In this document: piece after piece, positions 36,706 to 38,593 of the stretch
Layout: each line of letters opens with the position of its first letter
Position numbering within the stretch: position 1 is the stretch's first letter
Source of the DNA: an uncultured Oscillospiraceae bacterium
GTDB taxonomy: Bacteria; Bacillota; Clostridia; Oscillospirales; Ruminococcaceae
Length of the DNA: 63,275 nt
Direction of reading: 5' to 3'
Assembly (NCBI GenBank): GCA_949291395.1
Contig: CASEVW010000117.1
Location: 1-63,275, forward strand
Notes under the pieces: model-generated
Seen by the model: only the letters and a program-made list of their open reading frames with translations
The model's database searches: none
Told to the model about the DNA's origin: nothing
Translations under genes and position numbers: made by a program

Positions 36706-36751
36706 CCAAAAGAAAAAGGCACCCACTTTGTTGGGTGCCTTTTTCTTTTGG
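36706..36751. terminator. Long hairpin terminator at the tRNA-Lys 3' end
   Basis: CCAAAAGAAAAAGGCACCCA-ctttgt-TGGGTGCCTTTTTCTTTTGG perfect 20-bp stem. Confidence 0.8.
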
Positions 36752-36812
36752 TGCACTTCCAGGGACTCGAACCCTGGGCCCGCTGATTAAGAGTCAGCTG
36801 CTCTACCACCTG
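36749..36812 (-). pseudogene. 5'-truncated tRNA-Lys(CTT), approx. nt 13-76; probable att junction
   Basis: CAGGTGGTAGAGCA-GCTGA-CT-CTT-AA-TCAGC-GGGCC-CAGGG-TTCGAGT-CCCTG-GAAGTGC-ACCA; the upstream bases cannot pair with the acceptor or D stems. Confidence 0.88.
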
Positions 36813-36862
36813 TTACGACCACACTTAGCTCAGGGCAGCTATTCAGCTGTTTTTGCGTGAAA

Positions 36863-38593
36863 TTAAGCCACATTTCCGTCTGTGGCGTTTCTTAGAGAAT
36901 TTTCGCTGGTTTCTTCTGTCTGGCACAATTCCAGGAACTGCTTGTAGGTCAGTTTCACATGGACGTTCACCTGATAACCTTTGCCCACTTCCACCTTTTC
37001 CAGCAGTTCGCTCAGGATCATCCGCTTGCGAGCAAGGGGCGCCAGTTCAAATTCCTCAGCCCAGCCGCAAAACTGTCGGTAGCACTCCTTGATCTTCTGC
37101 GTGAGTTCGCGGTCATCTTCCGCTTCCTGCAGAACTTTTGCGTACTCCTGTCGCGCAGCCCGCAGCTCTGCTTCCGCCTTGGCGATCAGGCGAGCCAGCA
37201 TTTCCTGTGAGAATCCGCTTTCGCCATCGAGGCATCGCAGCACTTCTGCTTCGTATCTCTCCAGCGCATGTTCGCAGTCCTGCAACTTCTTTTCCAAGGT
37301 TGCCTTCTGCTTACGCTTGTCCTGATATTCCTGCCGAATCTTCTGTTCCAGCAGCTTATCCCGCGGCGCACGACGGATCGAAGCGAACAGTTCTCGCACT
37401 ACTTCCAGCACGATCCCGTCCACCCGATCTGCCAAGTACAGCGCCTGGCCGTCGCAATCCCGAAGTTTCTGTGCCCTCTGATAGCAGTTGTACTTGGGCT
37501 TCAGGGATTCTTTCACCGTGCCGTCCCTCAACTTATAGCGGTCATGATGCATGAACCCAGACATCTTGGCTCCGCAGTGTGCGCAGTAGACGAGCCCGGC
37601 CAGCAAGGTATTGTTATCCGACTTGTGAGCCACCTTGCGAGCTTCGGCGTTTGCGGTACATCTCATATCTACCATTTCGTTGGCTTTTTGGAACAGCTCC
37701 GGGCTTATGATCTCCAGTTCCGGCAGGTGCTGCGATCTGACGCTGCGGGTAACGATATACCCAAGGTATCCCTCATGACGCAAGATTCGCAGCACATGAA
37801 CCGGAGTAAATTTCGCTCCACTGTGGGTACGCAACCCTCGGTTGTTCAGCATCTCCGCCAGCGCGTAGGCGCTTTTCCCTTCATAGGCTGCCAGCTCAAA
37901 CAGTTCCTGTACAACGGGTGCCTCCGCCGGGTCGACTTCGAGGTCCTTTACAGGCTGCCCCTTTTTGTTCACTCGGCCCTTATGCACTGCCCGATAACCA
38001 TAGGCCACCGTGCCTCCGCTGTAATGACCGCTGGAATTGAGCTGCTGAATGCGTGTTGCCACCCGTTCTGCGATTTTTTCCGACTCTCCTGCTGCCTGCC
38101 AAAAGCGGATGTAGTTGATGAGCTTGTCAGTATGGCTGTCGATCCTTTGCTGTCCCTCGCGGGTGCTCCAGACCTCTACGCCGTGCTTCACAAACCATTC
38201 CACCACATACGGTGTTTCACTTTCAATGCGGCCAAGGCGGTCGAAGAGGAATACCAGCAGGATATCAATGTTCCCTTTTTCCGCTTCTGCTTTCAACTCC
38301 TGAATGGCATCTCGTTTGGTTGCGGATACTTTTGATCCCGAAACGCCTTTCTCTGCTTTTTCCAGCACCACGCGCCAGCCATGCTGTGCGCAGAATTTCC
38401 GGCACTCGATTTTCTGCATCGGGATATCGTCATGATCCACCTGCCCTTTGGTCGACACACGGTAGGCGAGTCCCGCGCGCGGCGCATCGGTCGGCAGTTT
38501 GGCCATCTCCCTTGCAAAAAACTCATCATTGAGCCATATCTCATCGCTTGCTGAGATTTGGACGGATTCTCCGAATTGATTGGTATACTTCAC
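36863..38593 (-). CDS. Large serine recombinase (integrase)
   Basis: YRVST catalytic Ser, FDRLGR, YGY recombinase domain, CAHCG...YNC...C zinc ribbon, coiled coil; GTG start after AAGGAGG. Confidence 0.95.
   Translation of the reverse strand: MKYTNQFGESVQISASDEIWLNDEFFAREMAKLPTDAPRAGLAYRVSTKGQVDHDDIPMQKIECRKFCAQHGWRVVLEKAEKGVSGSKVSATKRDAIQELKAEAEKGNIDILLVFLFDRLGRIESETPYVVEWFVKHGVEVWSTREGQQRIDSHTDKLINYIRFWQAAGESEKIAERVATRIQQLNSSGHYSGGTVAYGYRAVHKGRVNKKGQPVKDLEVDPAEAPVVQELFELAAYEGKSAYALAEMLNNRGLRTHSGAKFTPVHVLRILRHEGYLGYIVTRSVRSQHLPELEIISPELFQKANEMVDMRCTANAEARKVAHKSDNNTLLAGLVYCAHCGAKMSGFMHHDRYKLRDGTVKESLKPKYNCYQRAQKLRDCDGQALYLADRVDGIVLEVVRELFASIRRAPRDKLLEQKIRQEYQDKRKQKATLEKKLQDCEHALERYEAEVLRCLDGESGFSQEMLARLIAKAEAELRAARQEYAKVLQEAEDDRELTQKIKECYRQFCGWAEEFELAPLARKRMILSELLEKVEVGKGYQVNVHVKLTYKQFLELCQTEETSENSLRNATDGNVA

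Follow-up and report, generated by a model that had tools for sequence, protein, structure and literature searches.

What becomes of a tRNA gene when a large serine recombinase (LSR) inserts a mobile element into its middle: is the gene switched off, restored or replaced? The window analysed here, a stretch of 63,275 nucleotides that constitutes contig C117 of the source genome (G000, a 198-contig assembly that breaks at tRNAs), raises this question by holding the 3' part of a tRNA-Lys(CTT) gene beside the 3' end of an LSR gene. The initial annotation proposed that the tRNA is off while the element is integrated and is rebuilt on excision. We show that the junction is the right junction (attR) of an integrated mobile element, and consider it likely both that the LSR of this element cut tRNA-Lys(CTT) at A21-G22 and that a complete replacement gene lies at the unassembled far end, as it does in relatives. 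A swap of one tRNA gene for another, rather than an on/off switch, is the likely outcome.

Positions 36749-36808 of the reverse strand are identical to nt 17-76 of the two intact tRNA-Lys(CTT) genes of the source genome, and this match, together with the LSR reading frame and a hairpin, confirms the first description of the locus as a tRNA-Lys(CTT) that lacks its 5' part, keeps its terminator and has an LSR 50 bp away (the LSR stop lies 50 bp from tRNA nt 13). Written out as a 76-mer, the junction mismatches the intact tRNA at positions 2-12 and 16. The D stem, with one of four pairs, cannot form, and the acceptor stem keeps five of seven pairs, four of the five being G-U wobbles when read from the printed sequence; the junction cannot fold as a tRNA. 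ARAGORN calls no tRNA at this junction at its default threshold; a relaxed threshold does call it, but the same setting makes 65 calls across the window. The Rfam score, at 23.8 bits, is under the cut-off of 29. On the other side, the host flank of the tRNA half is 93% like the flank of the intact copy on contig C120. The 50 nt upstream of A21 are identical at 50 of 50 positions in four other genomes (G061, G068, G066 and G006), one of which is a complete chromosome, and at 34 of 50 in a second element of the source genome. This arm also resembles the reverse complement of tRNA nt 2-15, at 36820-36834 in the window and at about 4495-4510 in the second element (L002, on contig C182), where the likeness reaches 13/14 by eye.

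Table 1. Features of the window at and around the split tRNA gene (window coordinates).
Feature	Position	Strand	Basis
Repeated element of the host flank, behind tRNA-Lys genes in the genus	36621..36705		Matches C120 and several places in G001, G003, G005 and G007
Terminator-like hairpin of the host tRNA gene	36706..36751	-	Self inverted repeat; near-identical hairpin behind the C120 gene
tRNA-Lys(CTT) 3' half, nt 21-76 with CCA; B' arm of attR	36749..36804	-	Identical to the intact C120 and C158 genes
Inferred 2-bp crossover core, tRNA A21-G22	36803..36804	-	Junction differences and arm symmetry
P arm of the element attachment site	36805..36854	-	50/50 in four genomes; inverted-repeat match to the far-end arm of G061
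Large serine recombinase (LSR), 584 aa, open frame, catalytic motif YRVST	36863..38617	-	PF00239, PF07508, PF13408
Small Cro/C1-type HTH gene upstream of the LSR	38874..39083	-	PF13443; 95% identical in G061 and G068
Conserved element block: SLOG protein, resolvase-domain protein, DinG-like helicase, two HTH genes, Cys-rich KTR	39167..43761		Pfam
Probable cargo: dehydrogenase, GH43, GH2, GH1, rhamnosidase, MFS and MATE transporters, regulators	43800..58953		Pfam

The tRNA motif occurs four times in the source genome, twice intact and twice truncated, with both truncated copies behind an LSR. The check for other Lys-CTT copies that had been suggested thus returns two intact and identical genes, one on C120 and one on C158 in a Glu-Lys-Asn operon; in genomes of the same genus the gene follows 5S rRNA or stands in a Glu-Lys-Asn operon. 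The second split tRNA-Lys(CTT) is on C182, behind an LSR 92% identical to that of the window; there the LSR and junction (2716-4580) are followed by an element-type terminator, a transposase-like remnant and host-like peptidase and ABC transporter genes, the latter within about 1 kb of the element. The intact C120 copy was considered as the far end of the window's element and ruled out by its host-type upstream repeat and its window-like downstream flank, in which it is like the rRNA-linked copies of the genus. As for tRNA-Lys(TTT), a piece truncated where a contig ends (C125, 24945-24977) is all that the source genome shows, and ARAGORN finds no complete one.

The far end can be read in relatives. 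On the complete chromosome of Owariibacterium komagatae (G061), 5S rRNA is followed by two 22-nt tRNA 5' halves, each carrying an 82-83-nt spacer, and then by a complete tRNA-Lys(CTT), beyond which come a relaxase (PF03432), a coupling protein (PF02534/PF12696) and a VirB4-like ATPase (PF19044), and then, 86.8 kb away, the LSR with the tRNA 3' half; judged by its gene content this element is an ICE. G068 has the same layout of half, spacer and gene, with the ends 64 kb apart on one contig, and in both genomes the complete tRNA begins about 83 nt past the last 5' half. Across the relatives the complete tRNA has the same anticodon, is oriented the same way and starts 73-130 nt in from the far end. 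In G061 and G068 the acceptor letters of the far 3' half are complementary to those of the last 5' half but not to those of the complete copy (in G061 the letters are CC/GG against a TT/AA variant, in G068 there is a C3-G70 variant), which implies a genuine split of the gene together with the supply of a whole one. No complete Lys(CTT) other than the element-borne gene was found in G061, which also has one Lys(TTT). The initial annotation was right that an LSR element has split a tRNA without the usual 3' duplication; both halves are seen in these two genomes. It had named a replacement 3' half at the far end among the findings that would refute it, and the relatives instead have a split gene and a whole new copy, an outcome that it had not listed. 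The contig of G068 in question (C31; locus L010) belongs to a genome titled as Bacteroidetes and carries a Clostridia-type element whose LSR is 97% identical to that of the window, which reflects either mis-binning or distant transfer.

A wider search for Lys 5' ends in 16 further genomes found a cassette in five, complete genes only in five, an internal duplication in one and nothing in five. When metagenome contigs were searched with the far-end arm, all eight had tRNA 5' sequence before the arm and a stack that ended in a complete gene; none of the eight had the LSR-side arm in that place, as an attP circle junction would, and none was found in four runs either, though contigs drop rare forms, so inactivity is not implied. 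Behind every far junction that is readable in relatives there is a complete gene, one further junction being cut by a contig end.

The position of the crossover follows from small differences between the junctions and the tRNA. At nt 20, three of ten distinct Lys attR junctions depart from the tRNA; at nt 23, five of ten distinct attL junctions do so; and in one genome with an Asn target (G080) both differences are present. The junction patterns required a match at nt 21-22, with one site assumed for the clade, so the argument rests on the differences at nt 20 and nt 23. Among the shifts tried, arm symmetry is greatest at A21-G22, where attP scores 10/13 and attB 7/13 (7 and 6 at the next best shifts), and the Asn arms match at 19 of their first 23 positions. 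The junctions bracket A21-G22 as a 2-bp core between imperfect inverted arms; mirrored arms around a core of 2 bp are the established geometry of LSR sites, and dinucleotide cores are described in PMC10083194. A split inside the D-arm, as originally proposed, stands, and the breakpoint moves from about nt 13 to A21-G22: the tRNA matches at nt 13-20 are an element arm that resembles its target.

We propose the following course of events. An imperfect palindrome with its centre at A21-G22 spans the D-arm and the first part of the anticodon stem, and would serve the LSR as attB. The attP would share only the short core with it, so that integration would leave nt 1-22 and nt 21-76 at opposite ends of the element, a split that is visible in two relatives and of which the window shows the 3' end. 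The spare tRNA would be transcribed from the host rRNA or tRNA operon promoter, and its gene would present a fresh attB into which later elements could nest. When the body of an element is lost, its 5' half and spacer would remain, building stacks; such loss might result from recombination of the 56-bp 3' repeats with each other, or from an excision in which an inner attL reacts with an outer attR. Perfect excision is predicted to rebuild the tRNA, as was first suggested.

The stacks themselves are informative. The complete gene is preceded by up to four 5' halves, and halves exceed their partners (two halves to one attR and one LSR in G061, and three to one and one in G067). In 24 units the acceptor letters of the next tRNA, but not those of the previous one, can be predicted from the spacer type, which is what one would expect if every element arrives with an allele of its own that a later element then enters; the 125-nt spacer type, for example, has four different acceptor types before it and the same type after it in 4/4 cases. 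On this pattern the stacks of 5' halves appear to record repeated swaps. A conserved inverted repeat ends 5-7 nt before the element tRNA in roughly 104-nt units (L107, 1334-1483; L174, L179 and L183); covariation in it is weak (1/8 pairs), and it could act either as a hairpin in RNA or as a binding site in DNA. A promoter scan was at chance level, with two found against 2.4 expected.

For the window's own element, no far junction was found within the window, nor, in the source genome, any tRNA 5' half (16-mer, up to two mismatches) beyond the two intact genes or any match to the 24 spacer units; the far junction with 5' half and complete gene that the initial annotation sent one to look for is present in the relatives, and absent from the window and the assembly. 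The source genome also has no match to a 5S rRNA probe, which would explain the absence of the far end, as the tRNA adjoins 5S rRNA in the genus. Among sequencing runs, X1 covers the window best, with 89% of its sampled words, and contains a 101-nt contig over arm, spacer and tRNA start with three differences and a depth of 26.4 (window-exact contigs have depths of 12.9-23.6), as well as a contig over the element-type terminator. X1 may be the source sample but is a metagenome with several related LSR variants, so its cassette cannot be tied to this strain; it would be supportive of a replacement gene for this element, not proof. Run X2 covers the host flank and has a gap over the LSR 3' end that no contig bridges, and RNA runs cover only small shares of the window.

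The content of the element bears on whether it is whole. The LSR has Resolvase, Recombinase and zinc-ribbon domains, all three above the Pfam cut-off, with weak hits to two solved integrases, and is 97% identical to the LSRs of G061 and G068; the small HTH gene upstream is a candidate regulator or directionality factor. Positions 36746-43734 have 80% identity to the ends of the G061 and G068 elements, and all eight ORFs tested in the conserved block are present in both. The region 43800-58953, with a GC content of about 0.48-0.56 against 0.605 for the genome and only 65-74% partial matches in 21 genomes searched, is probably cargo of the element. The stretch 59262-63275 (AraC, kinase, isomerase; a rhamnose locus), is 92-93% identical to the same-genus genomes G001 and G007, which exceeds the 85-88% of syntenic flanks. 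No conjugation genes occur among the 25 window proteins scanned by Pfam, and the conjugation module of G061 has no match in the source genome.

The rhamnose genes from 59,262 onwards could be host DNA, leaving a truncated element, and one must then ask whether the locus is a frozen remnant: a real split by an element whose far end, spare tRNA and transfer genes included, was later deleted, so that host DNA resumes near 59 kb. The lack of attL, spacer and conjugation module in the source genome would fit this, as would the sharing of the rhamnose genes with G001 and G007 and the C182 element, which so soon reaches host-like genes. We nevertheless hold it to be unlikely, for the LSR frame and all eight block genes are intact, the syntenic site in the source genome, on C167, holds a different rhamnose cluster, so that the window copy may be cargo, the assembly is without the 5S rRNA beside which this tRNA lies in the genus, and the cassette is present in X1. 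An assembly error at the tRNA repeat might be suspected from the number of contigs and their breaks at tRNAs, and from the fact that no listed contig piece spans the junction with 31 letters on either side. Against this, the identical 50-nt arm is joined to a tRNA-Lys 3' half in four other genomes, including the complete chromosome, and both truncated copies in the source genome stand behind an LSR; the junction is not a chance product, and misassembly is very unlikely, its probability being close to nil.

Two further readings concern the fate of the tRNA. The element might be an ordinary restoring island, whose attP carries the tRNA 3' part, so that the far end is the intact gene and the window holds the displaced fragment. 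The element does lie between direct repeats formed by a complete gene and a 3' fragment, complete genes only were found in five of the 16 genomes, and G063 (C14) has just this appearance, with a complete gene in host context, attR 24.7 kb away and no scar. This reading is however contradicted in G061 and G068, where an orphan 5' half and a non-tRNA arm stand upstream of the complete gene and the far fragment pairs with the orphan half, and by the far-end arm, which mirrors the P arm at 10/13 positions (19 of the first 23 in the Asn pair); we judge it very improbable here. An excision-controlled switch, with tRNA-Lys(CTT) off when the element is integrated and on by programmed excision, has its model in the sigK skin and SPbeta/spsM elements of Firmicutes, LSR elements that interrupt developmentally timed protein genes and have no substitute. 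The gene is indeed split by an intact LSR, and the remark on codons that accompanied this idea was fair, AAG making up 64% of Lys codons in the source genome by a rough long-ORF count. The likeness to skin and SPbeta ends with the interruption of a gene by an LSR element, since those leave no working substitute, whereas here there are two host copies and, in relatives, an element-borne copy behind every readable far junction. The elements are moreover conjugative, carry cargo that differs from one to the next and have several types of tRNA as targets. A tRNA that is off during integration is thus not what the data support, a switch appears extremely improbable, and the physiological effect for the source genome is probably nil. 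A swap of the tRNA gene, with the spare at the far end, is the reading that we carry forward.

Searching with the LSR gave 79 loci in genomes and 18 viral ones. A Lys 3' half from A21 onwards was found within 300 nt of the LSR stop at 16 loci, two of them in the source genome itself, and Asn and Ala(CGC) halves at 13 and six loci, respectively. In an LSR tree of 89 rows (a quick search without bootstrap, with partial LSRs left out and row L191 of alignment A1 unused), the Lys targets fall in one clade with a support of 100, in which 15 of 22 rows have the tRNA half; the other seven have none within 300 nt, two of them at contig ends. The Asn targets form a separate clade (12/17 rows with the half), and a search of 13 genomes for the Asn cassette found it in four and cut by a contig end in one, with complete genes only in five and no match in three. 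For Ala(CGC), Ala(GGC) and Val(CAC) there is one case each of a cassette beside a convergent LSR. In the Asn, Ala and Val genes the split falls at the tRNA position used in Lys. The rows of this cassette survey are related and are not independent samples. At L011 the LSR frame runs into a tRNA-Lys fragment without the P arm and part of the D-arm, a deleted attR. In G080 (L252; C1, 55112 and 55299) and at L024 two tRNA-Asn 3' halves are stacked 187 bp apart behind one LSR; they are attR-side scars, the first of which is called as a tRNA by ARAGORN.

We give about an even chance to the broader proposition taken as a whole: that these LSRs are widespread in gut Clostridia, use a fourth tRNA site at A21-G22, have switched between Lys, Asn, Ala and Val and replace host genes wholesale, and that the stacks are an ordered record of invasion in which core tRNA alleles are continually overwritten. 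If this is true, clean deletion of an element may be costly in hosts with a single copy.

The closest known parallel is tRNA-dependent lysogeny, described for phage Fionnbharth and clusters K4 and L (PMC10865867). Like it, the elements have a short core and, in G061 and G068, the tRNA is rebuilt at neither junction, but there the integrase is a tyrosine integrase and the element a phage, whereas here it is a serine integrase and a relative is an ICE; the tRNA of those elements overlaps one of the phage's genes and the disrupted host gene is essential, whereas here the tRNA lies just inside attL and the source genome has two spare copies; and stacks of 5' halves are found here. By analogy the element would work like tRNA-dependent lysogeny, but it is not a member of it. 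According to the Islander report (PMC4383910), tRNA genes are not known targets of serine integrases; the report gives three crossover sites in tRNA (anticodon loop, T loop and 3' junction), which PMC8371274 repeats. Islander islands also lie between a complete tRNA and a 3' fragment and undergo tandem accretion, but have a tyrosine integrase and restore the gene from an attP fragment, in contrast to an LSR acting at A21-G22 with a whole gene supplied. The DsiB islands at ssrA of Dehalococcoides (PMC3146451) share a serine integrase of roughly 540 aa, a structural-RNA gene as target, tandem islands and a small resolvase-domain partner gene; their target, however, is tmRNA and their boundaries are 20-bp direct repeats, and the parts of that paper available to us do not describe a mid-gene split with a whole replacement. 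The serine-integrase IMEs of Firmicutes in rumA and traG (PMC5704250) likewise have an internal attB, very short repeats and a gene that excision can restore, and accretion is described, but they disrupt dispensable protein genes and carry no substitute, unlike the tRNA target and carried substitute here.

Targets of LSRs are classed by overlapping proteins in PMC10083194, and the word 'tRNA' is absent from its main text. PMC12084326 names Faecalibacterium elements at tRNA-Lys; its available text and the two supplements term-searched do not give their integrase type or junctions. No such design is described in the accessible portions of PMC12884075, PMC13626063 and PMC10484663, or in PMC12424338, and the literature search as a whole, with most subscription papers beyond its scope, found no description of an LSR that splits and replaces a tRNA gene. 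The present elements contradict the printed generalisation that tRNA genes are not serine-integrase targets, add a D-arm site to the three known crossover sites in tRNA and widen tRNA complementation beyond phages to elements that are conjugative. Such elements would escape island finders that look for a tyrosine integrase as a requirement, and methods that take a complete tRNA as the boundary would misplace the far end. Furthermore, the stacks of half-tRNAs offer an ordered insertion history, and an LSR that targets a conserved tRNA and comes with its own spare might serve as a tool for neutral integration in gut Clostridia.

Some smaller observations stand beside these. A 19-20-nt tRNA-Lys 5' piece in G005 (C1; L131), broken by a host repeat, lies upstream of an intact gene after 5S rRNA and is unlike the LSR scars, and in G071 (L173) a tRNA-Lys(CTT) has an internal duplication of about 25 nt that starts near the crossover site. 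Elsewhere in the window, just past a tRNA-Ser(CGA), a gene at 29455-31200 with a low GC content (about 0.46) and Schlafen AlbA_2, HATPase_c_4 and MarR domains is possibly a separate small insertion.
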